Assembly: GCA_044892505.1 (NCBI GenBank)
Contig: CM097882.1
Location: 145,080,001-145,144,000, forward strand
Direction of reading: 5' to 3'
Length of the DNA: 64,000 bases
Origin: Schmidtea nova
Taxonomy: Eukaryota
In this document: positions 1,529-63,039 of the stretch, piece after piece
Position numbering within the stretch: position 1 is the stretch's first letter
How the letters are laid out: the number at the start of each line of letters is the position of its first letter
The notes under the pieces: model-generated
Told to the model about the DNA's origin: nothing
Databases searched by the model: none
The model's input: the letters and a program-made list of their open reading frames with translations, nothing else
Made by a program: the position numbers and the translations under genes

Positions 1529-1532
<4 letters not shown>

Positions 1533-1615: not shown

Positions 1616-1620
<5 letters not shown>

Positions 1621-1977
1621 GGCTCACCAAAGATCTAAAAAATGCAATAAAACATAATAACAATTAGAGTAAATTAATGCCAAAATAAACTATGTTAACA
1701 TTGTAAACCTAAAGAAAAGAGATAATAACAAATAATTATGTAAATAACAAATTACTTAGAAGAATAGAATAAGCCGAATTGGTGGAAAATAGGCCGACAA
1801 AAGATCTAGAATGGAAATATGGAAAAATTTGCATAAATATTAATAAATAATAGTACAATTTATTAAATAATTATCTGGAAAAAAAAGACCACTAGACTAG
1901 AAAATCTGAAACTGAACTAGAATCAGGTAACAATTAATTAAAAATAATGAACTAACTTTGAAGGGCGGCCTGATCTT

Positions 1978-2014
1978 GATTGGTCAATCTGACCAACGCG
2001 ATCAGTATAAATAC
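1978..2014 (+). promoter_or_regulatory. Reverse CCAAT box plus TATA box (GATTGG...CAGTATAAATAC) of E1
   Basis: Same motif pair and spacing in E3, E4 and E7. Confidence 0.7.
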
Positions 2015-3559
2015 CGACATGAAAATCACAATTTTAGCATTTTTATTTTTGAAGTTAAAATTTGAGGCTTGAAACGATTCAACAGTTTTAAGTACTTACT
2101 AAACTCTAGAAATTAATTTTTATTCAAGAAGCACTTTGGAAGAAAAAGTAAATGGTTTTTTTGCCCATGATTTTATTATTTTATTGAATATATGTGTTAT
2201 AATTCATTCATTATTTTTACCTATAAATATGCTTCCTCAGTAGCTCACGCTGCGAGGGCGCAAGCCGTCTTCATGAGGCATTTTAGATCCACGAGATGGT
2301 GATTGAGATGTAATTTTTATGATTTATAGAGGTTGCACATTGGGACAGTTTTCGATAAACACTTATTAAAAATTTTGATTTTCACATTACACATACGGGC
2401 AGTGTCCGATAAACACTTTTTACATCAAGAATTTTGATTCCTTGCTACAAATATGGATAGTGTTATGCACAGCTTTTAGGATTTCGTATTGCGCTTAGGG
2501 ACAGTGTTTGAAATATCTTTTTAGACCGCACAGGGATAGTTTTTGTGCTAAACCTTTTAATACAAATAGTTCTAATAGCGACAGTTTAATAAAACATTTG
2601 GATTACATTTTGATCGGATACACCTAGCAAGGAGGTATATTAAGATATTGTGACCAATCGCATTTCATGAATAGTTCCGATAAGAATATTTTGATTATTT
2701 TGATCCATGCACGTAGAGATAATTTTACTAAACAATTTTTTTTGGGATTTCATATTTCACAAAGAAAATCGCACTGGACATTAGGATAAATCTGATCGCT
2801 GTATATAGCGACAGCTGTTGATCAAATATTTTGGTAATCCTGATCGTTGTACATAACGACAGTTTTAATAAAACATTTTATAGTAGTAGTTTTCCATACT
2901 ATATAGTGATAATTTTGAATTCAGGTTATACGTAGTACAGGTTATACGTAGTACAACCATATATTGATCAGTGCACGCCGTCATAGTTTTGATAAAATTT
3001 TTAACGGGGTAAAAAAGAACCATGTTGTATAGGCTTAGTCGTGGTACCTAGCGAATGTTTGATGACATACTTTATTAACAATAAATTTAATTGTACATTT
3101 TGTTAAGCATTAGTTTGGCACATTTTAATTTTCTAATAAACATTGGGGTCTATAAAATTTGTTTCTTGAGGAGATTTAGATTGCGGAATACACCGTATAT
3201 ACCCAACCTAGCCAATTTGGGATTTTTATGCCGTCCCTCGTTTAACACAGTAACTTGGCAGTATTAAGGGCTCCTGACGTTCATATCAGGAAGGGTTACG
3301 AGGATTTTAAAGTTTGTATAATTCTACATAGTAAGAGGGGTTCATGGGGCAAGGAGTTGATAAGTTTTGGGTGTACATCATGAGAATGGGGGGCACCTAT
3401 TATCAAGTCACCTGGGAGAAGGTATCACCATTCGGGTAGGGTCCAGGGAAAAGATCAATTTTTAAATGTAATAAATATTATAGTATTAACAAAACAGTTG
3501 GAATACCACACGATAGAAAAATTCATGGCATCGTAAAGAGAGCTACCCAATTCAGCTGA

Positions 3560-4010
3560 TATTTCGCTAACAAGAGCTAGTCGAGAACTGAAAGATTTAC
3601 CACCCCCGATTTTGAGAACAAAAAAATGCCCAGATGTTCAAATGTAGAAAAGCGTTCGGGGAGAAAAGTTTGTTTTCAATTTGGGAAACTGGTCGAGACA
3701 AGGTGCTATAACGAGGAGGCCCCGGTTGGCCTATTTCAGCAAACAGTGTTATTCTCCTAAATTCGGTAGACTCTTAATCATCGTCATGGATCACAATCAA
3801 GAGCCACGAAAAGTCATCTAATGGGGACACATCCCCAAGGCGAACTCGCCTAGCTAGGACTGAATCTGTTAACTTCACCCCGTCCTTACGGGAAAGCTCA
3901 CGAGAGAAGGACGCCAGATTTTTCCATCATTGAACTTCGGCAGAAATTCATAAATGAGGGCCTCCACGTTGCCCACGTATTTGGAAAAAGAAGGACTGGC
4001 TAGGATTGTG
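3560..4010 (+). pseudogene. E1 ORF1 remnant (GGPxWP family, unknown function)
   Basis: Reads ELKDLPPPILRT..., RGGPGWPIS, KFGRLLIIVMD and VI*WGHIP across frameshifts; homologous to 43848-44348. Confidence 0.8.
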
Positions 4011-4181
4011 ATTTTCTTGTTTTATAATTATATCCAAATAAACTGTTGTTCCTATTGATTTGGTTTTATTATTTAGTTAAGTAGAGAGTGAAACTACCTT
4101 ATATTTATATTAATAAATTTAAAAAATTTTCTTTTTCTTCTCTCACTAACTAACCGAGATATTTATTTTTCGTTGAGCAGT

Positions 4182-4767
4182 ATGAACCGAGAGACAGAGC
4201 ACCAAGCTGAACGAGAGAAAGCTGTGAGAATTCGACTCAGCTTAGAAAAAGAGATTAAGCAAGTGAAAACCAAATTAGCTCAAGCAGAGGCACAAATCCA
4301 ATATTTACGCAAAGGCTGGTTTGCGCCAGCACGGATGAAAGAACAGTTGGCTCGTACGGAACGCGCTCAGCGAACAGCGGATGAATACCGGATTGAGTGG
4401 GAGGCCACCAAAATTGAACTGAGAAAATTCCTTCACTCGGTGACAACATCATTTATTGACTCCGAAATCAGAGCCCAAATCAGGCCCATCACGTATCAGC
4501 AGTGGGCGGGAGAAAAGAAACACGCTTGTTCAGTTGGAACTGACGTGGAGGGGTTGGAAGCCGTAACCATTTTGAGTCCGGCAGAATCAACAGAAATCGC
4601 CACAAATTCCAACGGTACCAAGAATATAAAGCGGATAAGCTCCAAGCGCCGAAGGCAGAAGAAACTGTTAGCTCAGCAGTCAGTTACAAGAGCAGATCGA
4701 ACGGATGGCCGACATGAGCGAGTTGGATCTATTAGCTGAGATTCTCCCACTCAACGGAGACTTCTAA
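4182..4767 (+). pseudogene. E1 ORF2 (coiled-coil, WFxP motif, Arg-rich tail), frameshifted near the C-terminus
   Basis: ATG at 4182 follows GAGCAG|T. Reads YLRKGWFAPARMKEQL, SVGTD and KRRRQKK. A frameshift near 4680 restores QLQEQIERMADMSELDLLAEILP. Confidence 0.8.
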
Positions 4768-4921
4768 GAATTTTTTGTAAATAAATGAATTTTTACGGCG
4801 TAGCGCATTTTTGTTTTGTCTTATATAATTTAAGGAGTTTGTAGTTAAATTAAAATTATATTTTGAAATGTATTGTCTAGTTATTTAAGAAAGTTGAGCG
4901 TAATTATTGAGAGAAATGACA

Positions 4922-5153
4922 GCGTAAGACCTTCTAACGGCAGCAGAAACCCATGAAAATAAATGGAGAGTAGTTCCAGCGATGGAGCTCACCTGCCCAT
5001 CTTTTTTCAATCACCTTGCGCATTTCCAACCTAACTATACAAGGAGTAATTAGGGGCGCTCGAGTGAGATAGTGTATGTTTATGCATGATTATGGATAGG
5101 GCATTCCTAGTATATTGACGAATTGTTTTCCAAACCCTTCCATAAACCCAGCA
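4922..5153 (+). ncRNA. 3' structured RNA module A with anti-SL segment (E1)
   Basis: GTAAGACCTTCTAACGGC at 4924-4941; GUUCCA-GCGA-UGGAGC hairpin; bulged stem containing AUUUCCAA; covaries with other copies. Confidence 0.7.
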
Positions 5154-5382
5154 ATTTGGACATAATTCTTAAATAGTAGGTCAATTTGCTGACGTTTTGT
5201 GGTTTATAATGATCGATTTTGATATATTAATAAATTTTTACTGATGAGATTGATTATTTTTGCTTGCTGTTATTTATGAATTAAGAAGACAATCATTTGT
5301 TTCACTTCAAGCTATTTATTATAAAGATCCTAATGAATAGTTAGGGATTACTTAACTAGTGTGGGACAAAATTGGCAAAGAA

Positions 5383-5600
5383 CCTTTTATTGGTCGTCCT
5401 TGAACCCACTGTGACATTCGATCAATAATAGTTTCGACGCTCACTGTTTGCTGATTTCTACTCATTTGTTGCATTATCAACCTTACTCTATAGTGGCAAG
5501 AAAATGGTTAAATAATGTTTTATGTGTTGAGTTGTTGATGATGAGCCATAGCAACAACAAGGTCATATTGACGGTCGACAACCCTACAGAGTTATCATGA
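5383..5600 (+). ncRNA. 3' structured RNA module B (degenerate copy)
   Basis: Alignable to 37895-38115 and 61275-61495 (CCATTTGTTGC stem, GATGAGCCATAGCAAC, GGTCATATTGAC). Confidence 0.6.
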
Positions 5601-6554
5601 GCTTTAAATTCTCTTTATTTTTTGTGTATTTATTTTTCGACGTATTAAAACAAAATTTCAACTTCACTTCTACCAGTCCAACAAAAGGTGCATGTTGGTG
5701 TGTATTTTTCTATACTGTAAGCTGATTGATTATTATAAACGAGACAATTGAGTGAAACATGGTGTATTATATATGTTGGGCCAGCCGAATGAAGTTGAAA
5801 CCTACAATTAAAAAAAATACTAAATAAAGAAATAGGAATATTTAATAACAATTATCCAACAGCAGCCAGGAATCTAGAACAAAATAACGGGAAAAATAAT
5901 CCATAAAATAAGTATCATGAGAAATAATCCATGAAATAAAACATAAATTACTTAAATGGTAACAGATGGGATCCATTACGGCCTGATCGAACCTAGAATT
6001 AAAATGAAAATCAATAGGATTATTATAAAATTATAATTAACAGTGCAGGAAATCCCAGGAATGGATTGAATTCTAAAAAAATAAAATAAGGTAAAAGCAA
6101 ACAGTTACCAACTAGGACCCTCTGTTGCACAGCAATCAAAGCTAGAAAATATTAAATAAATTACCGGGAAACTCACATTTGGAATAAATGAAATTAAAAT
6201 CAATGAAAAGTTCGGATTAAAAATTAATACCTGCAAATTACGACAGCGACAGGCGAGTTTTGATTGGTTGGAAGCCAACACAAAAATAGTATATTCAGTA
6301 TTGTACTGTCATTTTACCTTGAGACAATTTGTCAATTGGTGTACCGAATCATTAGAATCGGCGCGTCCAGCTCCGATTGATTTCTTTATTTTTCCGAAGC
6401 TTCTTTTCCTCATAGTTTATAGCTTCCAGCTGTTTTCTACCGACCGCAACAGCTCGACGACCAGCTACAAATCCACTGGGATCGGTTTTGAATAACAGTG
6501 GCTTATCCATCTCCTTATCGTAAGAAAATGGATCATTGAAGCTGATTGAGTGTA

Positions 6555-6905
6555 CTATTGATTAATTTCGGCAATACATCGACAAGTCATGTCACAGGAC
6601 ATTTCGTGATGAAATTTGCATTCACATCGAGCAGCTTCCAATTGTGCACGGCATACTTTCGATTCATCAACAAAAGAGATCTCGATTCCATTGATCAAAT
6701 TTGAATTAGGATTCTCTTCATAACAGGCAGCTTTATCTAGGCTCTTTATAAAGGGAACTCCCAAGAAACTGATAAAGTCAGCACTTTCCCATAAACTACA
6801 GTCCGAACCGCTATCCGAATATAGTTTGTTATCAAATTTCATTTCATCATTCATAATTGAATATAAACCAAATTTCGAAGTCACAATGACTTTATTTAAT
6901 TCCAA
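6555..6905 (-). CDS. Hypothetical 116-aa protein, antisense within E2
   Basis: Open frame with a Cys/His-rich C-terminus (CECKFHHEMSCDMTCRC); starts at a non-ATG codon; no recognisable family. Confidence 0.3.
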   Translation of the reverse strand: MELNKVIVTSKFGLYSIMNDEMKFDNKLYSDSGSDCSLWESADFISFLGVPFIKSLDKAACYEENPNSNLINGIEISFVDESKVCRAQLEAARCECKFHHEMSCDMTCRCIAEINQ

Positions 6906-7659
6906 ATGTTACAAAATTCGAATACGCAAAACATAAATCCCAAACTCGAAACCTCTTTTATCCCAATCAGTTGACGAAAACGAAGCTTAAAAGCAATTAA
7001 ATCAGCTAAACAAAATCAAATCCTAGAAAAATTCACAAATCCAATATATAAACCAAAAGTTCCTTTTAAATATTCCACAATTATTTATTTAAATTCCAAA
7101 TCCGCCAAAAATTACAAATTAATCCAGATAAACAACATCTCTAATTCCTTTTAAAAATACCCAATTACAAATTAAAAATTAATTCATTAAATTAAATCAA
7201 AATCTGCCACTAAAAGACATAACAATTAATACAGTAAAACAAATCAATTATTCGTTTTTTAATTAAACCCAAAATTCCAAAATCACCCAATGTTAATTCA
7301 CTTGGCAAACACTGTCCCTGATATCCTGATTTCTTTTCGCATCGAAAGCCGCACAACAAATTCGATTAATCCAGTCTTTAAGTTTTTTTTAATCCTCATC
7401 AAAATAAATCCAAATCGATTTAATTCCTTGGTTATTCCTATAAGCGAATTCCGCTCTCGCGTCTGTGTGCGCACCCAATTTCACGATAGATCACATCACT
7501 GTCGCGCGCACAGACGATTGCACGCAATTCCTTTTTTTGCTGCCATTTTTTTTTGAAGAATTAATTCTAAACAATTGTATTTTTTCAAAATCAGGAAACT
7601 TGAATTGCATGAGAATTCGGTGAAGAACGTAGAGATAGTCGATTTTATTTTTATATGTA

Positions 7660-7701
7660 CAAATAAGATTTATATAGATTTCGATAATACCGTCTAACGG
7701 C
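7660..7701 (-). ncRNA. Spliced-leader exon copy (42 nt; SL pseudogene or retrocopied leader)
   Basis: Minus strand reads GCCGTTAGACGGTATTATCGAAATCTATATAAATCTTATTTG, a 40/42 match to the S. mediterranea SL as recalled (GCCGTTAGACGGTCTTATCGAAATCTATATAAATCTTATATG). No clear Sm site follows. Confidence 0.85.
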
Positions 7702-7914
7702 TTCCAGGCTCGCCCTACAATCTCTCACAGCGATCAAGCACGCAATTAATTATTTTAATTATTATTTAATTAATTTTAAAAATATTTTAATAAGCGGGCG
7801 CGACCAGGTATCATTGCAATTTCTTTTTGTTAATTTTATGTTTTGTTGCGGTTAAACCCCCATATTTTTTCTATGCCTTGTTATATTGTTATGTTTAGGG
7901 AAATCAATAAGAGC

Positions 7915-8030
7915 ACGTTCCGACGGTCTCACGACCTGACGGGCAATAACTGGCCTCCAGGCGCAACACTCTCCGGAGTATTGGCCGGTGCGGCGTACCA
8001 ACGCTAAATGAAGGGGAGGAGAGAGGGTTA
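7915..8030 (+). other. GC-rich conserved motif C (putative structured 5' RNA)
   Basis: Homologous to 22165-22285 (CCGACGGTCT...GACGGG...TGGCCTC...TGCGGCGTACCARCGCTAAAT...GGAG). Confidence 0.55.
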
Positions 8031-9566
8031 CTAAATCATCATAAGCTTTGAATACGTGTCAAGCAAGCAGTGATATAAAATCGAACAAATTCAATACAAT
8101 TATCGTATGCATAGTAGGTTAAATTAACAACCCAGATATAATATACATCGATAAAACGGAGAACTTCGGAGAGGTTATACATAGGAACTGTAAAAAGTAA
8201 TCATTTTCGACACAAGCATCGAGCAAACATAGTGACAAAAGCAAAAAACGATACTTTTCGCATATTTGTTCGCATACACAATAAGATGATAAATAGCGTA
8301 ACACGATATTCATCATGAGGTTGGAGTTCTAGGGAATTGTAAGGTATGCAGGGAGAGGTAGAAAACTATGCTGACAAACCCACCCGAATGAATATCCGAA
8401 TTTAGAACCATAGATTAATGCACAAAGGCATAAGACAACACTACGATTTTTACGCTGCCAATGATGCCAACATAGATGCCCGCAAAAGGGGTGACAGAAA
8501 ATTTGCAGTTAGAAACCTAGAGAACCTCTTAATGTATGAGCGATTGAGTGCAGTGGATTAGAAAATTTCCGTCGATGATTGCTTGAAGGACTGAGGACTG
8601 AGGTTGACTGTTTGTGGCTTACAGATTCTTAAATTGCTAAGGCTGGTGGAGAGGTGATTGGTTGCAGATTGAGGTAGGTTTGGTGAATAATTTGTGTGTG
8701 GCATAAATTTTCCATTATGAGAGTTATTATGAACGATCGATAGAGTAATAATTCCAGAGCGAACCGGTAACAGCCGAGTGGATTCATAGTGAATATTTGT
8801 CCATTAAAATTATATGTGTTCAGTATTCATACCGAGTGATCAACAGAAGGGAGAATTGATTTTCTAGAGATTGTCAACAAAAATTGGAAAATAGACAACA
8901 GCTGGCGGTCAGCAATAAGGATTTAAATGGGTAGTCTAGAATGTTTGTTTTGTCTGCAAATATGGATTATGTGTTTGGCCAAATCTGGAGTCCAGTTTTA
9001 GTTGGCTGTTGAAATGAGGGTTGATGTGTTTGTGGGAATGCGTGTAAAAATAGAAGGGGTCAAGTTCTTTTTCCTATTTCTTCTAAAGATAATTTAAACC
9101 CATTATTTCTTTGTTCGTCAATTATAATTTGTAGTTAACATGGAAATTACATTGAACTCGAAAGCCGAAAATCTTCCGTCACATAAAGCCCTTTTCGATA
9201 ACAAGGGAAGGACTAATAAACCAGAGTCCTGGCCGTTAATCAACATCCCAAGGTCTATTCAAGCCGAAGTAAACCGGCATATACGCCACTGGCGACGTTA
9301 TTTTGGTCAACCCGCTCCTTTTGACCTATGGAAACATCCAAACTGTGAAATCCTATGTGAAGGAGGACCACACTGGCCATTTGATAAGAATACATTTGGT
9401 ACCAAACGCATCCGATGGTTTATCGAATTGCAAGATGACAATTGGGGTAAATTATCTTGGATCGACCCCGCAACATCCGCACAGGAGAGGTAATATCCTA
9501 CCCAAATCTGCCATTGGGGTTCCAAGGGGAATGGAAGTCACGATCGCCATGGGCAGGAAATATTCA

Positions 9567-9795
9567 TGCTGGTGTGTTGGTTGGATGTTCAACTGAGATC
9601 ATGTTTGATTTTATACGTTAGGGTGATCTCACCAAAATAAAAATATCTCCCCGCTGACACCCATGATGTATCCCTAACTACTCATCATGTTGGTGCTATG
9701 TCAACGTTGTGAAATGACAAGGCAGGTGAGCAACCTTGCGGCCACTATTCCCTTGTTTATTCACGGGTCCACCACTACCGTTAGAAGGTTTATGT
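9567..9795 (-). ncRNA. 3' structured RNA module A (E3)
   Basis: AAACCTTCTAACGGT; GUGGCC-GCAA-GGUUGC; CUCACCUGCC; CAUGAUG/CAUCAUG inner stem. Confidence 0.7.
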
Positions 9796-9969
9796 GGTTT
9801 TCTTTCGGTCCCTTCTTATGCGCTCTCTTTGTCTCCTCTTGGGTAAGTTCGATTTCGATATGTCCTGTAGCACAGAATGAATCAGCTTCACTTAGTCAAC
9901 TTTGAATTTAATTTCACATACATACCTCAAACACTCAAGTCCAGTCATTTAACTAGTATACATTTATTT

Positions 9970-10527
9970 TTAATTTAACAACACTGATGGGTTTATGACC
10001 GCGATCAATTGTTTCTCAGTGAGACCACTCAGAAGGTCTAATTCAATTCCGACTCTTTCAGCGTATTCCCTTCGCTCTCGTCTTCGTTTTGCTCCTAATC
10101 GGTTCCGACGTTTTGTCCGTTTGGAGCCCTCAAGTGGCGACATGGTTATTGGAGTACTCGCCATGGAACTCGAGTCCATATCTGTTTGTGTACTCATGGA
10201 TACGTTAGTAGTCTTCACCCAGCGATTGAAAGTGCTGGCTCGGATGAGGGATCGTAACTGCTGCGTGATAAATTCTTTGGTGGACACCCTCATATAATTA
10301 TTTAGCTCCAGCTTTACAGCGGCAGCCTCTCGTGTTTGCTCGTCAGCTATCTGCTCGGCTCTGTATCTCGCTTGTTGAATCAGTTTCACCCGTTCCGGAT
10401 GAAACCATGTGGTTTTCACTCTTTAGTGTTCCTCACTCAACTGTTGTAGCCTACCTTCGAGAACTTTAATTCGTAATTTGTGCTCCTTAGCCTCTCTCTT
10501 ATAGTTACGATTGTGGCTTTCATTCAT
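9970..10527 (-). pseudogene. E3 ORF2 (coiled-coil, WFxP, TQT, Arg-rich) with one in-frame stop
   Basis: TTTTTAG|ATG at 10527; MNESHNRNYKREAKEHKLRIKVLEGRLQQLSEEH*RVKTTWFHPERVK...STQTD...NRLGAKRRRERR. Confidence 0.8.
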
Positions 10528-10822
10528 CTAAAAAGGAGGAAACGAAGATCAATCTGTACTATGATTCATTTACGGTCCTATATCCCCCTCTTACCCTTGA
10601 ATGTTATGGTATTAGTATTCACAAATCGGTATCTCCCCTTACTCTTTATCATACAGTCACCCATTTGTAAATCAACATCACACCTGCATCATTCGCTTTT
10701 TATTGAATTAGACACAAAAGTTCTTGGTATAACCATTTATTAATTTCATCACAAATCATGACACCTTCACGTCCGTTTTGCCATCTCCTTTAGAAAAATT
10801 CCAATAGGTCTTGGTTAAATTG

Positions 10823-11362
10823 TCAGTTGGCTCGTCCTCTCCCATCCGGTTGGTAGATTTCTGGGCACGGGTCCCAACATAACCGATCCTGGTATGCAAA
10901 GACTTCCCATAGTCTTTCGTTGTTTGGCCCCGACTGAGTGTTCATATTTATATTTCCGGGTGCATGGAAGTAGGATTGTCTTTTGTAAACATTGTCCGTG
11001 TAAACACATCGGGGTTGGTCCATTAGGATGTATCCGAGTTTGTGGAAGTCGGACCTTGTCATAGAATTGTCGCTCAATATCCACTTGGGTTGGCTTTGGG
11101 AGTTCTCAAGCTGTAGAAACCATCGGCTGCCGGCTCGATTCGGCGTCTTTGATGACATTGGCCACTCCGGATCGCCTTCCCATCGCACCCTTAGCTGGAA
11201 AGACCCTATCGTTCCTCGGGTGGCTGGGTCGACGTGGCCTCGCATCCAGGCTCTCAGGTGTCGCTCGGCCGACCACTTTATAGCACTGGGGATGAGTGTT
11301 GGATCTTCGAAACGCCATCTTCGGATAGCGCGACTTCGCTGTCGTTCTCTTTGGTATTTCAT
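10823..11362 (-). CDS. E3 ORF1, 179-aa Trp-rich protein of unknown function
   Basis: Intact ORF preceded by TTTTTAG|AGG-ATG; WEGDPEWP core aligns with GGPxWP of other copies. Confidence 0.7.
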   Translation of the reverse strand: MKYQRERQRSRAIRRWRFEDPTLIPSAIKWSAERHLRAWMRGHVDPATRGTIGSFQLRVRWEGDPEWPMSSKTPNRAGSRWFLQLENSQSQPKWILSDNSMTRSDFHKLGYILMDQPRCVYTDNVYKRQSYFHAPGNINMNTQSGPNNERLWEVFAYQDRLCWDPCPEIYQPDGRGRAN

Positions 11363-12352
11363 CCTCTAAAAAGATAGAGGCATTAGTTGAAGGATGAGGC
11401 CTTTCACACATCATTCCATCGTATGTCCACTGTTTCGTACACTCTGTCATCATGCTTCGTTCATGTCACATTATACTCTTTCACCCAAATCATACAAATT
11501 ATTTAAGATGTTTACCTGGTGCATTGATTTCATATTTGCTATAACTTTTCCGGTCAACATTTTGATCGTATGATCGCATTCAGTAGTATTTAATCATACC
11601 TACCCTACGCATTCATACTACTTTGTGTTTGCATAGTAATGTACTGGCTACTACTACTCAGATTTGATGTCACATTTATCATCAGTCACGCACGTTTCAC
11701 CGCAATCGATTAAATTCACATTCACATTCAACCAACATAAATCAATTTGTACCTCGTTATTACTCGGAAGGTATTATAGTCGGTTAGCTTCATACACGAC
11801 AATTTGTATTGTGGGGGGGGTTTAACTCTGGGTAGCTGATAGTGGGAACTCAACTCCCTAGATACTGCGCCAATCGAATCAAGTCTTTAGTGTTCTCATT
11901 TCACTTTCGTATTTATTATGTTGTTACTTGTCGCTTACAATGATCGAGTCTGACCTTAACTCTGGTCGCCTCGCATTTTTGGACCATCTGATTTTATCTC
12001 TCCTTCTAACCGCTACTCGAACAAGTCATGTGCACCCTTCCCCTTCCGAATTAATTAAAACACTTATGGTCTCGCCGCATCAGCACCTCACATGAAAATG
12101 TGTTGTGCCGAGAGGCCGAGAATCCCGTCAGATCGTTAGACCTTCGGGACAAACTTATAGATTTTAACATGAGGGTTTAATTAACATTCATAACAAGAAT
12201 ACAACTAACGTACCTTTTATTCGCAAATGTCTTCACGGTTAGAATGTTGTTCCAATTTAGACCACAAGTGATTCTAGTAAAATGACTCAACTCCAAAATG
12301 ACTGACTAAAATATTGACTGCAAAAATGACTGACTTTCTACTGATTTCACTG

Positions 12353-12390
12353 CAGTATTTATACTGAGTGACGTTGCTGGCCAGCCAATC
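12353..12390 (-). promoter_or_regulatory. E3 CCAAT/TATA promoter
   Basis: Minus strand GATTGG...CAGTATAAATACTG. Confidence 0.7.
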
Positions 12391-13109
12391 AGAATTGAGC
12401 ATGTGTGCATATATTGCCTATCTTTTATGCTTGATGATTTAATTACGTATTCAATTTGGTGAGTCATTATTTTGTTCGTTTTTTATTCTTTTATTACTCT
12501 TTTGTTATATTTTAGATTTACCATCAGTATCGGCCCACGCCTGTCAGCTTTTGTTCCAGCTGAGTAAGTTTTTTGTATTGTTATTTAATTTGCTTTTATT
12601 CTTTTATCAATTTTTCAGACTTTGATGTGCGCTGATCATATGCCGATTGGTAAGTTATTTTCTGCTCAATTTCTTGTATTATTTGTTGCTATTTTATTTA
12701 ATTTATTCTATGTTTTATTTTAGATCGCTTGGCCCAACATTCATATACAGGCAAAATTTATGTTGGAGACTGAATCCGGACTTCTACCACTCAACTGGGA
12801 TTCGGAAGGAAGACAGTGAGTATTCGCAAGACTGGATTTGCGATACCCAATGATACGAACACTACGAACTATTGATATTTTGTGCTCCTTTTATAATTGT
12901 TAAAATGTGTTCTTTAATTATAGTTTTGAACTAGTGTTTGTTGATATTGCGGGTTTGGATGATGGGATGGTGATGCGTAAATTAGATTATTTTTTTATTG
13001 GTGATGTTACTTAAAAGGTAATTGGAAGGGAGAATTAATACGTATTTAATTAAAGATGTATGAAATCACCAACATTTCGAACTATTAAGTAAATTCCCTA
13101 TGATTCTAG

Positions 13110-13420
13110 ATGGAAAACCTGCGACAAGTAGTAGATACAAGTAATGAACGTCTATAACAGAGGCGTATACGCCTATTAAAAGGAAAACTGAACCAACGAG
13201 AGGTAGAGGTCGACGAGCTACGGCAGACGTGGTTTAGTCCGACCGCAATGATAGATGCATTAAAAAGTAAGAATAGAGTACAATGAGCACTCGATGAACA
13301 GATTGTGGGTAAAGAGACGTCGCGAGCGGAGGGCTTTCGCAGCGCGCGTGAATCTTGAGGAGGATTTATTAAGCGGGTTAACAGAGAGACAATTGGTCAA
13401 TGTAATTAATAACAATATAT
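13110..13420 (+). pseudogene. E2 ORF2 remnant (internally deleted)
   Basis: TTCTAG|ATG; ELRQTWFSPTAM; NRLWVKRRRERRAFAARVNLEEDLLSGLTERQL, matching the E3 ORF2 C-terminus. Confidence 0.8.
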
Positions 13421-13429
13421 TTTTAGGCT

Positions 13430-13757
13430 GAATAAATGTATTAATTTATTTGTGGGGTTAATATTTTTATCGAATGATGCGAATGAATATGCGTATGGTG
13501 AACTAATGAACCAAATTAATAACTAAAAGGGGACATGAGTTAAAACTGCTGAGACCTTCTATCGGTCGAAATGAACCCGTAGATGATAGGGGAATAAATG
13601 TATTAATTTATTTGTGGGGTTAATATTTTTATCGAATGATGCGAATGAATATGCGTATGGTGAACTAATGAACCAAATTAATAACTAAAAGGGGACATGA
13701 GTTAAAACTGCTAAGAACTTCTATCGGTCGAAATGAACCCGTAGATGATAGGGGAAT
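13430..13757 (+). repeat. 162-bp direct tandem duplication including the anti-SL segment
   Basis: Two near-identical units start at 13430 and 13592. Confidence 0.95.
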
Positions 13758-13939
13758 ATTACCTACCTAGGTTGCTCACCTGCCCTGTTAGTCTACACCG
13801 CTCAGTACATTACCAACATTTAGCGCAGTTAGGGGCAAACCATGGATGTTGGGGCGTGGTATATTTTTTATGTTGGCCGGGTTACCCTAATCCGAATCTC
13901 TAATGAAACCCGTGTTTATCATCCAACCGCATTCCAACA
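13710..13939 (+). ncRNA. 3' structured RNA module A (E2, degenerate)
   Basis: CTTCTATCGG...GAACCC...GCTCACCTGCCC...ATTACCAAC, ~226 nt from the element end. Confidence 0.6.
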
Positions 13940-15082: not shown

Positions 15083-16273
<1,191 letters not shown>

Positions 16274-17306: not shown

Positions 17307-17527
17307 TGGTGTGGACACCGTTTCTTTTTTTGAGGATGATCTAGGTGGTGGATGCGACCCACACTTCAACATAAATTTACCTCTATCCCACTCGTACACC
17401 CATGGTAATTCCCCGGATAACCATGTTGGAACTGTGTACGACAGTGAAAGACTAGTGGATAGGTGAGCCCATTACAATGACTACTCTTTCTTCATCGGGT
17501 TCTAGAGGCCGTTAGAAGGTCTTACGC
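17307..17527 (-). ncRNA. 3' structured RNA module A (E5)
   Basis: Plus strand 17508-17525 GCCGTTAGAAGGTCTTAC; UCGUACAC/GUGUACGA outer stem; CAUGGU/ACCAUG inner stem. Confidence 0.7.
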
Positions 17528-17568: not shown

Positions 17569-17810
17569 TGATGGGATTGTGGATGGGCTTGTAAAAACAT
17601 ATATGTTGTAAATGTCGTGTTCTAGGGATCCCTCACCCACAACCCTGCATAAACTGATCGTCGACACGCGTATGCCCTTGATTATTCCTTACTAGTCAAG
17701 TTGGTACTGCATACGGTGGTGGAAAAATGATGGGCAGGTGAGCTCTGTTACCAGAACTACTCCCAATTTATCTTCCCTCGGGTTCTTGTTGTCGATAGAA
17801 GGTCTTACGC
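17569..17810 (-). ncRNA. 3' structured RNA module A (E4)
   Basis: GCGTAAGACCTTCTATCGAC; GUUCUG-GUAA-CAGAGC; CGUAUGC/GCAUACG; AGUACCAA bulge. Confidence 0.72.
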
Positions 17811-18100
17811 ATTTAAATCCTATTTCTATTCGTCCCAATATCAATCTTTGATCTCTATGCCCCCATTTTCCGAAAACGCTTTCTCCTAACTTTCGTATAT
17901 TACTTTCGGTAGTTAATTTTATCTTGTAATTAATTAAATCGGTTTTTTTGCGGTGATTAACGTTTGTGCAACTTGTGAGGGAACTGGTTACTTCAATTTG
18001 TTTAATTTAGTAGGAATATTTTTTTACGAGGAGAGATAATATAAAATCAGCAACTCTTAAACTAGAACATATTTATTTTAGACACATCGATATCAACACG

Positions 18101-18677
18101 TTATCTCATAAAATCCAAGTCGATTTCGTCCATCAGTTCAAATTCTGTTAACGCGCTTAATCTATCGATCTGATTGGTCATACGCTGAGCGAATTCTAGG
18201 CGACGGCGCCTTTGTCTTGATCCTAATCGGTTCCTTCGCTGCTGTCCGACTGTGGTTACGGGAACTGTTGGTTCTGGTTGGCTGCTGCGAAGTGTGGGAG
18301 GAACTTCCATTATAGGGTTTGGAGCCATGATATTCTCGTCCTCCGTTCCAATTGCAATCTCCTGATATTTGCTTTAGGTCCATCGCTGAGCCGTAATTGG
18401 ACGGATTAACGCGCGCAGTTCGGTGTCTATATAGTTCTTCGTCACCGAATTTAGACAATTTCGCAGCTCTCTCTGGACTGCGTCGAGCTCCGTCCTAGTC
18501 TCAGTTAAAGCTTCCTGCATTCTATCCAGTTTTAACAGTTGGGTTTTCATTTGCTCTGGAGAAAACCATCGAGTTTTGAGTTTCTCATTTGCGACCGTGA
18601 GTCGCTTGATGCTGGTCTCTCATCTTCCGCTCTTGAACTTGGTTTGTAAATTTCTTTGAATTTTCGATAGAATTCAT
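18101..18677 (-). pseudogene. E4 ORF2
   Basis: TTTAG|ACCAA-ATG; KTRWFSPEQMKTQL...IRPIT...AIGTED...NRLGSRQRRRR; one frameshift and one stop. Confidence 0.8.
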
Positions 18678-19638
18678 TTGGTCTAAATAGTACAATACTT
18701 ATTGCCATGGTTAATTTACCGGTGGTTTATATTTTACTGAAATAACATAATAGCTATAAAGTGGACAAAGTAAACACCATTAATTCTAACACAAGTGGTG
18801 ATTAGATTTTGTGAATTTATTGAAACTTTATCTTCACCACTTCAAGAATTTTAGATGTTTAATTTATTGTGCTTAATTACTGACAAATGACTAAAAGAAC
18901 TCTCATTTACTAAGACATTTATTGAATTAAATTAGTCACTAGACATTTTTCCCCGTTAGGAAAATATAGTTCGGATTTGCAGATTCATTCTGAATGTCTT
19001 TTGACCCAACAAATTCATTCTCATGGCGCATCTCATGTCTATTCTGGGGTTGGTTGTCTCTGTGCTTAGGAAGATTTGAAAAAATAGCGCTCGCAGTGTA
19101 ACCCGTTAGTAAAATTCTCGTTACTTAATCTCCGTTGTCCCATGTGCAAAACCTCGAAACATTATAATATTTTAAATGTCAATAATTTTCCTACCGGGTG
19201 TGGAGCCTCTAAGCACCACGACGCGGACACACCCTGGGAACATGTAGCTCCCATTTGNNNNNNNNNNNNNNNNNNNNNNNNNNNNNNNNNNNNNNNNNNN
19301 NNNNNNNNNNNNNNNNNNNNNNNNNNNNNNNNNNNNNNNNNNNNNNNNNNNNNNNNNNNNNNNNNNNNNNNNNNNNNNNNNNNNNNNNNNNNNNNNNNTA
19401 CATATAATTAATATAACAAAATGGATGGCAAAAATCATGAATAACATAAAATAAAACCAAAGTACCTAATTTGTCTAGTTGCTTTATTAACTGCTTGATA
19501 GTATTGATTTAATTCGGTCTGTCAATTGATCGTCTAGTAATCAAAGTTCAAGTTGAAGTCACAATCAAAATTCAATCAGTTCAGTTAACTCAATCGATTC
19601 AATCACTTCAATTAATGCTATTTGATCTAAAGTCTGAT

Positions 19639-19678
19639 CAGTATTTATACTGATTTGTCTGGATCAGATTAACCAATC
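19639..19678 (-). promoter_or_regulatory. E4 CCAAT/TATA promoter
   Basis: Minus strand GATTGG...CAGTATAAATACTG. Confidence 0.7.
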
Positions 19679-20248
19679 CGGATTGACCGTCTCTACCGTA
19701 GGTCTCATTATTTATTTTATTTGCCTAATTAATTTTTTAGTTTTCAGATTCAATTCTCTTTAGGAGGTCCAGTTTTCCAATCAATTTTCCAATTACAAGT
19801 ACTTTTATTTTATTTAAATTATTAATATTCTACAATTTATTTGTTTTAGGTGCCTCTTATGACGGCTAATTTTACAATTTCTCTTGACCATTCTTTAAAA
19901 TTTTATCTCAAACTTATCTATAATTTATTTATTTATAATTTTTTTATAATTTTTTTTTTTTTTATAATTTCATTTATAGTTTCTACGTTTTTTTCTTTTT
20001 GTTTTAATTGTTATAAATTTAGTTTCCTTTTTACTCTGTTTAACTGGCCCAACATTTGTCTACATGTAATTATTCCAATATGAGCTTTATTCGAATATTT
20101 TATTAGTTAAAAAATCTTTCTATTTTCCGATTTGTTATGAAATACTCAAGTTAACTCAACTCAGAACAAAACAATTATTTCATATTAAATTTCGTGATTT
20201 CCTTCACTGAGTCAGATGACACCCACTAAAAACTCCAATTCAGTTAGC

Positions 20249-41391: not shown

Positions 41392-42699
41392 GTAAGCACA
41401 TTTTTATTATTTGGTGCGGGGTCATTGAAAAGTCATGCCCCTTCAATTACCCCGTACCCAGTAATATTTTATTTTGTCCTTTGAATTTTAGTGTATTGTT
41501 ATTATTTCATTATTAATTTTATATGAAAATATCAAACTTTATATGTTATATGATTCGTTTTTATCCTTATTTTATTTATTATTTAAATTTTACTTTACTG
41601 TCACAAATTCCCATATTTAATAACAACTCTATTTCATGCAATATTTATTGTATAATGATAAAAAATAATTTTCTTTTGCTTCCATATCCTCTAACATCTG
41701 TTCTGGCCTCGTGCCGTACGGATGGAAGTAGCCTGAGCGGATCGCTGGTTCGATTTGTAATCGATCAGCCCATTTTTCCGACTTTAGGTGATACGCCCAA
41801 ACATCCATGATCACTTCATCCCAACTGGGGAACAGTAGCTTGGCCAAGGGCAAGATTTTTAAATTAATGATCAGCAATTTATATTAATGTATTTTATCCG
41901 AATTATATTTTATACCATATAGTGTAATTAAAAACTGATACTGCATGTTGTGTATATGAAAGTTGGAAATTTTTATTTATTATTTGTATTTATTATTATT
42001 TTTATTTATTATTTGTATTGAGTATGGTACTGTGCATACCGGAACCCCCCCTTTACACTATTTAGGCGCNNNNNNNNNNNNNNNNNNNNNNNNNNNNNNN
42101 NNNNNNNNNNNNNNNNNNNNNNNNNNNNNNNNNNNNNNNNNNNNNNNNNNNNNNNNNNNNNNNNNNNNNNNNNNNNNNNNNNNNNNNNNNNNNNNNNNNN
42201 NNNNNNNNNNNNNNNNNNNNNNNNNNNNNNNNNNNNNNNNNNNNNNNNNNNNNNNNNNNNNNNNNNNNNNNNNNNTTTGAATTCATCAGCTTACTATATT
42301 AATAAACTATAGTAAGCTATGAAATCAGAAATTGAAAAATTGATTAAAAATGTTGGGCCCGCCAAATCACCTAAAATCACAATAATAGAACAAAAATATA
42401 AAATAATAAGGAAATAATAAACATAAAAATGACAATAAAAACAAATTAAAAATAAGAATAAAATGACAAATAATATTTGATAAGTTTCCAGCAAAAGGAA
42501 ATTTTGAAAATAAACCGGTAAATAACAGCAAAAGGGGGCAAGAAATAAGAAAAAATAGAATTAAATAAACTAATAGTACAAATAATTAATTAATTACTCG
42601 AAAAATCAGGACCACCCAGCGAGAAACCGGAAAAGGAAACAAAATAATGTTTAGGTTTAAATAAAATAATAAAAATACTTTGATGGACGGTCTGATCCT

Positions 42700-42736
42700 G
42701 ATTGGTCAATCCGACCAGCCGGATCAGTATAAATAC
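42700..42736 (+). promoter_or_regulatory. E7 CCAAT/TATA promoter
   Basis: GATTGGTCAAT...CAGTATAAATAC. Confidence 0.7.
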
Positions 42737-43847
42737 CGATCCGAAAATCACTAAGTTAGAATAATTTTTACTCGAAAGAGGTTTACTGAGAGAAATTTTA
42801 CTCAAAAGAATTTTACTCACAAGCATATATTTTACGTACAAGAATTTATTCACTTCGAAATTTCAAATCATTCAATACAGGATAAAGGTACGAAGGAATA
42901 AAGTTTTTATTTATTGTCATCTTTAAATGATTATTAATGTACCTATGATTTCACCATTTATTTAATTATAATTTTATGTTTAATTTTACTTCATTTGATT
43001 TTATCTTAATTTAACCATGCATATAGTTATACTTCCTAGGCTGCTCACGCGACGACGGAGTCCGAGTCGTCGTTGTGGGGCCTCACGGTCTCACATAGCG
43101 GTTCAACCTTTTTATTCTTTTTATTTTTTTTTGCGATTGTAATTTGAGAACTGTCAAAGATGCGAATTTATTAAGAACGATTTTCAGTTATTTTTCACAC
43201 TTAGTTATTTGATAAAAATTTTCATAGTGAATTGTAAAAAATTCGACGATTTTCTGACGATAATTAGAATGTCACCTATTCGGTTGCACAGAGGGCGTAG
43301 TGTGGGGCGCAGCGGAAAAGGCGGAAAGAGCTGCCAGAGGGTATGCAGCACCAAATGAAAGTCAGGTATCAGCCTCCAAAGTATTAAGATTATAAGGAAA
43401 AAATTTGAGACTCTGGAGCATAAGCGAGACGATACAAATTAGAGAAATATGCATTCAAATCGATCAAATTTACAATTTCATGAAGGGTCAAAGTACGACT
43501 CGATAATATCGACTTGGATAATGCAGACGAAATACGTCACAACATTCCTATTAAATAAATTATCTAAATTCTAAAAATACTCTTAGACCGATCGCCGTAC
43601 ATGGCGCGGAATTTCCTAATTTATAGTCCGATCGCTGTATATAGCGCGGAGAATTTTCATCAATTTTTATTCTTCCTGAACGCTTTATCTAGCGTAGGGC
43701 CACGTAACTATAAAGACGTAATCCAACCGTGGTATATCGCGGCGAAGACAAATCAATTTAATCATATTTTAAACCATTTTTTGTTGTCATACGCAGTATC
43801 AGTAAATCTTCCGACAAATTTTCTCGGTTAAATCATATTTTTCTAAA

Positions 43848-44348
43848 ATGTTTGACAAACTAATACAGATGTCGGCAGCCGATGTTATGGAAAGGTTGAC
43901 CCAAATTCGGAATTCGGAACAAGGGAGCACGGGAAGTGGAACGGCCTCCCAACTCAAGGAGCTGCCCGCACCGATATTGCGGACCATTAACGCCCAAGTA
44001 TACAAGTGGCGGCACGGGTTTGGTCGAAAATGCCCGTTATCCATATGGGCTGGAGGAAAAGATCGAGTATTCTACCGGGGAGGACCGAATTGGCCAATTT
44101 CACAAAAGTCTTATTCGAAGAAATTTGGGCGGATAGTCATTGTGATAAACGACGCAGAGGGACGACCGAGTCAAATAATCTATTGGGGACACATCCCTCG
44201 CCGAGAGTTATGCAAATTAGGACTGCAAGCGTTCCTGCCGCGGAAACCGTTTGGCAAGGAATGTCAGGATGGGCAACCCCCATTTTCTTGGGCTCGACTT
44301 CGACAGATGCCAATCAACCACGAACTACACAGCCTATTTCGGCGATAA
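43848..44348 (+). CDS. E7 ORF1, 166-aa protein of unknown function
   Basis: Open ATG ORF; KWRHGFG...YRGGPNWP...KFGRIVIVI...IIYWGHIP. Confidence 0.7.
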   Translation: MFDKLIQMSAADVMERLTQIRNSEQGSTGSGTASQLKELPAPILRTINAQVYKWRHGFGRKCPLSIWAGGKDRVFYRGGPNWPISQKSYSKKFGRIVIVINDAEGRPSQIIYWGHIPRRELCKLGLQAFLPRKPFGKECQDGQPPFSWARLRQMPINHELHSLFRR

Positions 44349-44528
44349 ACTATGTGACAATGATATTTCTAAATAAAAATCTTATTGTTTATCAGTGGTC
44401 TTTGTTTTTAAATTTTTGTGTTATTAAGTCTATCATGTTCTTGACATAATAATCATTCGCTCGTATTGTAATTATAAACATGTTTTAACCATAAAGCGAC
44501 AAAGCAGTTAATTTAAATCCATTACAGA

Positions 44529-45125
44529 ATGAATACAGATCTTGCACAAAGAGAGCTGGAAAAGATGTGGCGAATCTGGAGAGCCCAGGACAAGGAATTG
44601 GGTCTCCTCAAGGAACAACTATCCAAGGCCGAGGCGCAAGTCACCTATTTGCGCAAAAGCTGGTTCGCTCCTGCTCGGATGAAGGAGCAGATTGGTAAAA
44701 CCGAGCGTGCGCAGCGAACAGCGGAAGATTACAAAATGGAATAGGAAGCTACCAAAATCGAGCTTCGGAAATGCCTACATTCTGTGACAGCCTCCTATAT
44801 CGAACGGGAACTGCGGGATCAAATCCGACCGGTCACATATCAAGAATGGACGGCGGAAAAGAAGAGCGTAAACTCGATCGGCACGGACGTCGACGATCTC
44901 GTTGGAATTTGTAACGAGCCGGTTCCATCAATAAATCCAGCCACCCAAACTGCCAATGCTCACCAGAAACGTAAGCGCATAGGGCAGAAAAGGCGACGGC
45001 AAAGAAAGCTGTTCGCTCAACGATTGCAGAACCAAGTTGACGGCTTGCACAAATTGACAGAGGAGGAACTATTAGGAGAAATATTTCCCCCAGCCGAAGT
45101 TTTTACTGATTTAATTGAAAAATAA
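44529..45125 (+). pseudogene. E7 ORF2 with a single TAG (likely TGG) at 44742
   Basis: TTACAG|A-ATG; YLRKSWFAPARMKEQI; NSIGTDV; ATQT; KRRRQRK. Confidence 0.85.
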
Positions 45126-45357
45126 ATGAAATCTCGTATTAATTGTCATTTTTGTTGTTTACCTAAAATAGTTTAGTTAATAGAATAAACAATAATATCT
45201 CTGAAATAAAAAGAATTATAAAATTATAATACAAAATATATAAAAAAGGTAACTAAATAATTAAATGAGCACTATGTCAGAAAACTTCATGTAAAATGAG
45301 TGATGTCAAAGACAAATTTTCTAAAGTTTATCGTGGATTACAGAGCAGATGATTAGA

Positions 45358-45593
45358 GCGTAAGTCCTTCTAACGGCAGCAATGAACCCGTAAACATAAA
45401 TGGGGAGTAGTACTAGCGATAGTGCTCACCTGCCCATCATTGTTTAACCACCCTGCGCATCACCAACTTGATTATATAGGGAAATAGTCGAGGGCGCTTG
45501 AGTGTATAATTGCAATTTTATGTATGATCATGGATGAGGGATCCCTAGTCATTGTTAGAACATTTTTCATCTAACCCCTCCATGAACCCAGCA
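45358..45593 (+). ncRNA. 3' structured RNA module A (E7)
   Basis: GTAAGTCCTTCTAACGGC; GUACUA-GCGA-UAGUGC; CUUGAUUA/UAGUCGAG. Confidence 0.72.
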
Positions 45594-59910: not shown

Positions 59911-60170
59911 CATTTTTATAGGAAGAATTAATCCCCGAATTGAGTTTGCGATGATATACTTGAGTATAAGCTTGCGAATAAAAATGGGTGCACGAAAATT
60001 CTTGTATCTTGAAATAATGCTGTGTATAATGATTGATTGCGAAAAATTAATAAATTTTTATCGATAAAATTATTTTATTTTGCTAATTTAAAATGGATAT
60101 CTGTAGTTAAATTGTGATGCTAAATAATGGCTTAAATGCGTTTTTGAATGTGAGATATTAGATTTTAGAA

Positions 60171-60959
60171 ATGAACCTCTAGCAGAAGTTGGAAGAAATT
60201 CATCGGCTGACTCTGGAAAATGCCAGACACAATCGCAAGGTGCATCAGTGTTTCGCCGAGCTGGAGAAAATGAAAGCATCAAATTCAGACGCCCTACAAA
60301 TAATGACTGTTAATAATTAAAGATTTGTTGTTGTTAAATTATATTCAAATAAAACTGCTTCCGTAATAATTTGTCTTATTCGAACAAATTTAAAATGGCG
60401 AATTAATCAATTAAATAATAACGACAATTATGCGTGCCAGCATTTATACTTATAATAATTTGACTATATAATAAAATTGATTACTTATAATACAATATAT
60501 GTTATGTATAAATTAGTTAATTAAATATCCCTAACAATGACCTCCCGGATAGAGAAATTCAGAGCTCGCTGTCGGGAAATGGAATCGACGTGGTCCGACA
60601 AAGAGACCGTCAGTAAATTAAAGAAGCAGAATCAATTGCTTCTACAACAAGCTGCTGAAGACGCGATGAGATTGCGCGCGTGCAGGGTCACGATGCGGGA
60701 GCAGGAGCTCTTGATCGAGAAGTTAAGAGTGGATAGTAGCATCATCTCTGCCATATTGCCAAAGTCACAGCTTCCACCCCAGGAATTGTTCCCAGTGAGG
60801 GTTGAGGAGGAAATCCTGACACATCCCGCTCCGGAGAAGTCTAAACATCAGAAACCCAGTAAAGGGGTTAGAGCGCGAAGAAGACGTCACCAGGAAGCTC
60901 GTCTATTGGGCCAAATCCGAAAAGAATCGACCGAAATTCTTGACTTGACATTGATTTAA
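60171..60959 (+). pseudogene. ORF-D (coiled-coil plus Arg-rich tail) interrupted by a solo LTR
   Basis: TTTTAG|AA-ATG; MNL*QKLEEI...SDALQIMT, then the insert, then SRIEKFRARCREME...; paralog of 62090-62662. Confidence 0.8.
60308..60536. mobile_element. 229-bp solo LTR
   Basis: TGTTA...TAACA termini with exact 5-bp TSD ATGAC; absent from the paralogous ORF. Confidence 0.85.
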
Positions 60960-62089: not shown

Positions 62090-62662
62090 TCAAAAATGTG
62101 CGTGAGTCAGGTCGATAGTCAAGTCGCCGATTTTCGAGGCCTCGACCCTCAATTGTCCCAGTATTCGCGCTTCTTGTCGGCGCTTGTTTCTAGCCCTTGT
62201 CCCTTTACTGGGCCTCCATCGTTTCGGTTTGGTTGGAGCCGCGGCTGCTGAAATTTCCTCCTCCACCCTCACCGGGAACAGTTCTTGAGGTGGGATTTGA
62301 GGTTTTGGTAGTATGGCCGCTATGATACCACTGTCCACCTGCAGTTTTTGATTGACGAGTTCCTGCTCCCGCATGGAGACCCGACACGCCCGCAATCGCA
62401 TTGCGTCCTCGGCGGCCTGTTGCATCAGCATCTGATTTTGTTTCTTCAGCCGATCCACCGTCTCCCCATCGGACCATGTCGCCTCCATTTCGCGACAGCG
62501 GGCCCGGAATTTTTCCATTCGGCCGGTCATTATCTGGAGGGCGTCTGAGTTGGATGCGCCTTTGGCCTCTAGTTCGGCCAACCGTGCGTCGACCTTTTTG
62601 TTATGTTTTGCGTTTTCCAGCAATAACGCACGGATCTCCTCGAGCTGTTGCATTAAGTTCAT
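62090..62662 (-). CDS. ORF-D, intact 190-aa coiled-coil/Arg-rich protein of unknown function
   Basis: TTTTAG|AAA-ATG; open frame; clearly similar to 60171-60959. Confidence 0.75.
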   Translation of the reverse strand: MNLMQQLEEIRALLLENAKHNKKVDARLAELEAKGASNSDALQIMTGRMEKFRARCREMEATWSDGETVDRLKKQNQMLMQQAAEDAMRLRACRVSMREQELVNQKLQVDSGIIAAILPKPQIPPQELFPVRVEEEISAAAAPTKPKRWRPSKGTRARNKRRQEARILGQLRVEASKIGDLTIDLTHAHF

Positions 62663-63039
62663 TTTCTAAAATTATGCAAGCATTTAGTAAATGTCGAACG
62701 TAGCTGCTGCACAACCATTTTATCATACAACACTATTCATAAAAATTTAATAAAACACATATTTGACCATGAATCCTCCATGGGTACGTCCACTGAGCTT
62801 CAACTCAAGGAATCAAAAGGAAAAACCTTTTATTAACACATCTATTCGAGGTATTTGGTTTTTATTGATTTTAACTAGGCTTTATTTTTTTCTAGGCTTT
62901 TCAAATCTGTATAATTTTGTATCAGTAATTGTAATTAAACTCTATTTATCCCTTATACCTAATGTCTATCTTGTTATTCTTACAGAAATTTTATAAATTG
63001 TATTTTAAATCTTTTCTAATAAATTTATATTCAAATTCC

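Follow-up and report, generated by a model that had tools for sequence, protein, structure and literature searches.

Each of the leftover repeats described here carries a promoter, a leader, two orphan genes headed by splice acceptors, and poly(A) signals. Most LTRs do not code for protein, and a solo LTR is regarded as a dead promoter. The novelty lies in a solo LTR-like repeat that holds genes equipped with acceptors and poly(A) signals of their own; leader splicing itself is already known. The AG in front of each start codon has the sequence marks of a conserved 3´ splice acceptor, and an acceptor beside an ATG cannot tell cis- from trans-splicing. The observation is solid. The operon resolved by SL addition, as proposed in a first-pass annotation of this DNA, is unproven and comes second in rank to cis-splicing from a shared leader.

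The repeats, 2.5–5 kb in size, are probably the solo LTRs of a retrotransposon. Within the window, i.e. the whole 64-kb stretch of DNA that was analysed, all five units (E_A, E_B, E_C, E_D and E7; Table 1) have TG..CA ends with short inverted repeats, starting with TGTTGGG and ending in CCCAGCA, CCAGCA, CCCATCA or CCAACA. Exact 4-bp target duplications flank four of the five, E_A having three of four positions matching, and an empty-site paralog of the E7 insertion lies at 51419–51460. Judged by motifs, a Pol II promoter and a poly(A) signal lie inside the units, and the common plan reads CCAAT/TATA, ATG-free exon ending in a GT donor, ORF1, AATAAA, ORF2, AATAAA. No PBS, PPT or gag-pol is attached to any unit within the 64-kb window, and because no interior is attached to them there, the units may alternatively be a non-autonomous TG..CA DNA element.

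Table 1. Features of the repeat units and related sequences (positions in the window; a slash marks a splice site; introns and exons are predicted).
Feature	Position	Strand	Remarks
E_A LTR-like unit	1616..5153	+	TGTTGGG..CCCAGCA; flanks ATAT and ATTT (3/4, beside (AT)n run)
E_A CCAAT box and TATA motif	1978..2014	+	
E_A predicted intron 1	2148..2240	+	AA/GTAAAT..CTCAG; donor aligns with E_C and E_D donors
E_A predicted exon 2	2241-2298	+	ends G/GTGATT
E_A AATAAA, spacer, acceptor	4037..4180	+	AATAAA after decayed ORF1; acceptor GAGCAG
E_A ORF2	4182..4739	+	185 aa; WF.P motif, Arg/Lys-rich C-terminal part
E_B LTR-like unit	5774..13939	+	TSD TATA; contains ~1.5-kb insert and nested E_C
SL1 exon relic	7660..7701	-	33/35 identical to part of published Schmidtea SL exon (by eye; PMC10899757 Fig. 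S6)
E_B acceptor and ORF1	9129..9493	+	TTGTAG; ATG 9140, 117 aa
E_B acceptor and broken ORF2	13104..13286	+	TTCTAG; ATG 13110
E_C LTR-like unit	9567..12739	-	3173 bp; TSD TTCA; nested in E_B
E_C CCAAT box and TATA motif	12355..12390	-	
E_C predicted intron 1	12154..12213	-	60 nt, AG/GTACGT..ATAAG, after 124-nt ATG-free exon
E_C acceptor and ORF1	10823..11367	-	TTTTTAG (11366); ATG 11362, 179 aa
E_C two AATAAA, spacer, ORF2 acceptor	10528..10741	-	AATAAA at 10741 and 10704; TTTTTAG (10528-10529)
E_C ORF2	9970..10527	-	one stop codon interrupts this copy
E_C conserved antisense block	9722..9793	+	CAG/GTGAGC..about 60 nt..TAG/AAGG
Equivalents of E_C antisense block	4925-4996(-), 13712-13783(-), 17734-17807(+), 45361-45433(-)		
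Further copies of antisense block	22460-22535(-), 38465-38539(-), 61515-61593(-), 17450-17525(+)		
Regions with antisense intron-like units	12420-12739(+), 1616-1960(-), 19690-20054(+), 5774-5960(-)		
E_D LTR-like unit	17569..20054	-	internally deleted; TSD TTTG
E_D TATA motif and donor	19641-19653, 19465	-	
E_D acceptor and broken ORF2	18101..18684	-	ATTTAG; ATG 18677; frame change before WF motif
E7 LTR-like unit	42351..45593	+	TSD AAAA
E7 predicted intron 1	42888..43039	+	AG/GTACGA..TCCTAG, after 134-nt ATG-free exon
E7 predicted structured exon 2	43040-43100	+	z=-3.4
E7 acceptor and ORF1	43863..44348	+	ATACAG; from ATG 43869
E7 AATAAA, spacer, acceptor, ORF2	44372..45125	+	155-nt spacer; TTACAG; ATG 44529, one internal stop
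E8 acceptor and third-family ORF	60163..60959	+	TTTTAG; ATG 60171; broken by 229-bp TG..CA insert
E9 acceptor and third-family ORF	62090..62667	-	TTTTAG; ATG 62662; intact, 190 aa

All nine AG..ATG strings quoted in the first-pass annotation are present on a direct read of the window. On the plus strand, the ATGs at 4182, 9140, 13110, 44529 and 60171 follow the AG at offsets of 1, 5, 0, 1 and 2 nt; on the minus strand, those at 10527, 11362, 18677 and 62662 follow at 0, 3, 5 and 3 nt. ORF1 of E7 had been set aside as an exception. Within 8 nt of its first ATG (43848) there is indeed no YAG; the in-frame ATG that comes next, at 43869 and thus 21 nt or seven codons further on, lies directly behind TACAG. 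A YAG stands 0–5 nt before the start in 10 of 11 element ORFs vs 12.8% of the window ATGs, and the one copy that does not fit is the decayed ORF1 of E_A, where 8 nt separate a TAG from the first in-frame ATG. The scored ATGs were not chosen for their AG, since in nine of the ten cases the ATG is the earliest one in frame past a stop in the same frame (43869 is the exception). The background (271/2125 ATGs with a YAG within 0–5 nt) is the same in AT-rich contexts (146/1188) and within elements (86/687). Measured against it, nine of ten starts with a YAG have a binomial P of 8e-8 if copies are counted separately; because copies share ancestors, a conservative floor is set by three families, at 0.128 cubed or about 0.002. 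T at position -5, found in 9/10 acceptors and in 32% of the 2748 YAGs of the window (P=2.6e-4), is an independent sign. The upstream 100-mers of 13 out of 14 pairs of copies align no better than shuffles, and the AG has therefore been retained while its surroundings turned over. Both the enrichment over background and the T at -5 bear out the earlier view that these AGs look like selected 3´ splice sites.

That the AG is there by chance, or as a translation-start context with no splice site, is scarcely credible. The AT-richness of the DNA, the shared ancestry of the copies and a YAG within 0–5 nt at 4 of 15 control positions (14 non-element ORF starts, mostly fragments, and one off the real actin start) would agree with such an origin, but the low probabilities (below 1e-6 by copies, about 0.002 by families), the T at -5 and the persistence of the AG across unalignable upstream DNA do not. 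The actin ATG itself (16261) has no AG nearby; this gene (15083–16261, minus strand) has one short intron.

The acceptor was further followed in reads from paralogous copies in four runs (X1–X4) of one study, comprising at most three samples. The reads behave as DNA, with unique pieces at even depth and no exact intron joints among the 15 of 206 joints listed. Among the 46–60 paralogous DNA contigs per run that were compared with E_C ORF2, variants of at least 10% occur at none of the six positions of TAG and ATG, at 12 of the 17 coding positions that follow and at 6 of 30 positions upstream. By itself this invariance is a weak sign, the upstream side being conserved too. Loose ends of three diverged paralog types (10511, 10514 and 10534) retain the YAG/ATG, reading TTTTAG/ATG or TTCTAG/ATG on the minus strand; in one of the three, the DNA further upstream is unrelated. 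An exact intron-less copy was not found among the 15 of 206 joints or the 24 of 75 loose ends listed from this DNA. Summed depth in X1, which is not copy number, is 30,000–180,000 over the promoter and end blocks, about 50–3,400 over the ORFs and about 40 over unique pieces, a contrast that suggests many subfamilies sharing ends.

The proposal of one promoter held up: a single CCAAT/TATA stands upstream of both ORFs, and its TATA 13-mer is identical in four units (0.22 expected). The CCAAT box and 13-mer lie 350–405 nt inside E_A, E_C, E_D and E7, and a second copy of the motif was not found in the units. In all four units sharing it, exon 1 is ATG-free, measures 116–158 nt and ends in a GT donor with T-rich sequence after it (T content 0.20–0.30 before the donor and 0.44–0.56 beyond). 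The donor reads AG/GTAC in three of the four, a motif picked after seeing the data and present 12 times as a hexamer in the whole window; E_A has AA/GTAAAT at the aligned place. E_B was left out of this count owing to an insertion there. A first acceptor follows 60–152 nt beyond the donor in three assessable copies, and a second exon of 55–61 nt ending in G/GT can be traced in E_A, E7 and a remnant at 21050, with two ATGs in E_A and none in the other two. Exon 2 folds better than shuffles in 4/7 copies only. The exon 2 donor is weak in E7, with a U1 score of 1/7, and was not located in E_B or E_C. From the leader to the ORF1 acceptor the spacer is 0.6–1.2 kb. TGTAHATA, which we take to be a Pumilio-type motif, is found in E_A and E7 in sense orientation, in the stretch that separates exon 2 from ORF1 (2800, 2848 and 43636), in similar CGATCG..(GCG or ACG) contexts.

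Donors are not enriched 45–200 nt before the ORF acceptors compared with random YAGs (P=0.14), and dedicated short introns before the acceptors were rejected on this ground; the partner of the acceptors is therefore the distant leader or the SL. The same result bears on the possibility that ORF2 has its own promoter, in or after ORF1, and that the AG ends a short 5´-UTR intron. Good donors (scores 5–5.5 of 7) do stand 67–165 nt upstream of 4/10 acceptors, but with donors not enriched and the promoter motif present without a second copy, this arrangement is unlikely.

Predominant SL trans-splicing is reported to need an acceptor without a cis donor upstream (PMC8629364), and a flatworm solo-LTR donor is described as cis-spliced to an ancestral trans-splice acceptor, with a ‘donor-first’ rule cited in that account (PMC4558846). 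Since the leader donor precedes ORF1, this rule makes ORF1 most likely cis-spliced from the leader, to judge from sequence. The claim that SL addition resolves a polycistronic RNA thus met with a conserved donor upstream of ORF1 in 4/4 assessable units as well as with the published rule, and the first-pass annotation had itself named cis-splicing from a 5´ UTR donor, a donor here seen in the sequence at the end of the ATG-free leader, as evidence against SL addition. Release of every ORF, ORF1 included, from one polycistronic RNA by SL addition agrees with the acceptor before each ATG, the single promoter and the SL in the host; given the conserved donor and the donor-first rule (PMC4558846, PMC8629364), it is very unlikely.

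We regard it as moderately probable that each ORF is expressed by alternative cis-splicing of a shared leader from the one CCAAT/TATA promoter, much as in retroviruses. The units do have a leader exon that lacks ATGs and whose donor precedes several ORFs headed by acceptors. Transcription would start about 30 nt past the TATA motif; exon 1, with the structured exon 2 in E_A and E7, would then be joined to the ORF1 acceptor and the RNA would end at the first AATAAA, or the leader would be joined to the ORF2 acceptor, with ORF1 and its AATAAA skipped. With the ATG set 0–5 nt past the AG, upstream starts would be kept out of the variable intron, such that one leader could serve every gene. The putative ORF2 product could regulate the export of unspliced element RNA, like Rev or CERV. 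Speaking against shared-leader cis-splicing, use of ORF2 requires the spliceosome to skip the ORF1 acceptor and an AATAAA, the spacer of 138–213 nt fits an operon equally, and eight short intron-like units are oriented oppositely from the same promoter region, so that the repeat may run mainly in either direction.

The spacer would also suit a mixed operon, the strongest alternative though the less probable one, in which ORF1 would be cis-spliced, cleavage at the ORF1 poly(A) site would leave a donor-less RNA, and the ORF2 acceptor would receive the host SL. The acceptors appear to have a cis donor upstream, and that of ORF2 would be freed of it only after this cleavage. ORF1 and ORF2 lie on the same strand within 300 bp, with 179 nt (E7) and 295 nt (E_C) from the ORF1 stop to the ORF2 acceptor, and an AATAAA precedes the ORF2 acceptor by 143 nt in E_A, 155 nt in E7, 176 and 213 nt in E_C and 138 nt in E_D; the E_B spacer is without AATAAA and has an ATTAAA at 13049. 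Such spacing is within the 300 bp or less used for flatworm operon candidates (PMC12582326). According to the same source, operon-internal flatworm acceptors show the least cis-splicing, acceptors are widely shared by both reactions, and 597 partial-leader loci lie at LTR/LINE elements, suggesting that retrotransposon RNAs receive the SL (PMC12582326); a trans route is therefore realistic. The low variation among paralogs in the 30 nt before the E_C acceptor (6/30) and the presence of the host SL1 exon in the genome are in line with it too. On the other side, AATAAA is a frequent motif (319 occurrences in the window), alternative last exons would fit this spacing as well, the starts have no frame preference for the SL AUG, and no SL-ended loose end at 10528 occurs among the 24 of 75 listed, a weak point as these are DNA only.

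The SL1 exon relic indirectly suggests that the host has SL trans-splicing. There is no intact SL RNA gene in the window, the relic (7660–7701) has no SL intron match and no Sm site following it, no Sm-site motif occurs in the window, and an Rfam search of the window returned no SL RNA, ribozyme or snRNA. The notion that SL RNA genes are carried by the elements themselves was rejected, the relic and the antisense blocks being without an SL donor plus Sm site. All reported flatworm SLs are said to terminate in AUG (PMC12582326). The element starts all retain their own ATG, and 5/10 are in frame with the SL-terminal AUG (P=0.21); this frame test gives no support for a fit to the SL and would say little against the SL. 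The relic sits near one end of the E_B insert (6337–7810, ~1.5 kb), which also has a Cys-rich ORF remnant at 6555–6854 (minus). Over 7402–7814, summed DNA depth reaches about 176,000 in X1, compared with about 40 in unique pieces (a depth, not a copy number); directly after the SL exon in the insert, 35 contigs diverge.

Near the repeat end lies an antisense block in which AGGTG and TAGAA are invariant in 9/9 aligned copies, about 60 nt apart and intron-like. The TAGAA part falls within a 17-mer that matches the 5´ end of the SL relic at 15, 15, 14, 13 and 10–12 of 17 positions. The block may be an antisense intron, a captured SL piece or an anti-SL site, and, with its sense strand complementary to the 5´ end of the SL, the 17-nt stretch might base-pair with RNAs that carry the SL. 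A scan of five repeats for short GT..AG intron-like units found eight, all of them antisense and located in the first 360 nt, before the TATA motif is reached. The promoter region seems to work in both directions and to send a spliced RNA outward from the repeat.

The proteins are orphans. ORF1 copies are 26–27% identical to the first copy, and in-frame ORF2 copies are 30–56% identical to ORF2 of E_A. ORF2 has a helical N-terminal part, an Arg-rich patch and a Leu-rich tail, with the WF motif 40–45 codons past the ATG in four of five copies; the ORF2 start of E_D would be less certain, its ATG being in another frame than the ORF2 body. E9 has no BLASTP similarity to ORF2, and E8 and E9 are therefore regarded as forming a third family. 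None of the nine element ORFs or pieces fell into a Pfam family at the curated cut-off, no homologs of ORF2 or of a 3-sequence ORF1 profile were found at E 0.01 or better among proteins of near length, and ESM Atlas matches were all under 0.9. A search of 1.84 billion proteins returned two weak multi-stretch matches to long proteins, one repeat-rich and bacterial-type, which were rejected. ORF1 models are poor (pLDDT 44 and 58), and fold searches with them had no result at E 0.001. The element ORFs were not found to be related to CERV or Rev in sequence or fold.

Another family of repeat ends, bearing a related antisense motif, is also present in the window (5363–5591, 37870–38116, 61259–61492 and 61649–61893). 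E8 and E9 point toward each other with two of these ends in between, and the 229-bp TG..CA insert inside the E8 ORF (60308–60536) has a 5-bp duplication. Transposon remains lie at 25614–26135, 29310–30113, 31488–35168, 38781–40211, 46397–50627, 51989–52735 and 56872–57954; they are of mariner, hAT, Tc1-like and two gypsy types, the first and last ORFs having no Pfam match and being called by appearance only. An Rfam match to mir-753 at 51793–51854 (E 7e-6) is below the gathering score; the SL1 exon relic marks the host as planarian-like, and this match is a weak hint of the same.

Many dispersed copies of the repeat could still make protein, and a related element is reported to aid regeneration (PMC13465017, citing Lee et al. 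2026). With one acceptor behind a donor and the other behind a poly(A) site, the units offer a mobile-element test of the competition between cis-splicing and the SL. If ORF2 takes the SL, this would be a retroelement operon dependent on the host SL, of which no description was found in the literature listings searched; the terminal repeat of a planarian giant retroelement would then be a two-gene operon that borrows the host SL, and solo LTRs would stay SL-dependent expression units, a picture that we hold to be doubtful rather than probable. If all splicing is in cis, a familiar retroviral strategy would have turned up in an unusual place. Genes of this kind inside such repeats were likewise not described in the literature listings searched; Burro LTR transcripts may already be described elsewhere.

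In complex retroviruses of the HIV-1 tat/rev type, a leader is spliced to alternative acceptors. The units resemble these viruses and CERV of C. elegans Cer1 in having one LTR promoter and, as predicted, a spliced mRNA for an accessory protein, but differ in that both genes and the poly(A) signals are inside the terminal repeat itself. Cer1 is an LTR retrotransposon of an SL-using host, and the portion of its description drawn on here reports consensus acceptors before the predicted initiator ATG with trans-splicing and SL1 unmentioned (PMC10309623). Burro/GYPSM1 are planarian giant gypsy-like LTR retrotransposons with thousands of copies, over 30 kb in length with a 25-kb interior (PMC6431247), and their LTRs are therefore multi-kb. 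They share with the present units, of 2.5–5 kb with TG..CA ends and 4-bp TSD, a planarian-type host and large LTRs, and have accessory ORFs, whereas the passages of the description cited here mention neither ORFs within the LTR nor a scheme of splicing (PMC6431247); by size and host, the units are probably the LTR of a Burro-type element. Burro/GYPSM1 elements are also characterized by a giant Gag-Env-Pol polyprotein with BIR/BCL2-like domains; the units have no interior attached in the window. Like flatworm operons resolved by the SL, the units have a same-strand pair of genes, a spacer under 300 bp, an acceptor before the second gene and an SL in the host (PMC12582326, PMC8629364). Those operons, as reported, consist of host genes with SL-junction reads, whereas the units are known from DNA and have a leader donor upstream. 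A closer parallel in splicing is the Echinococcus ta-TRIM, in which a flatworm solo LTR supplies the donor for cis-splicing to an acceptor that lies further downstream, adjoining the start of a gene (PMC4558846). In ta-TRIM, as described there, the LTR is a small one without coding sequence and the acceptor is that of a host gene (PMC4558846), whereas the units described here bring acceptors and genes of their own.
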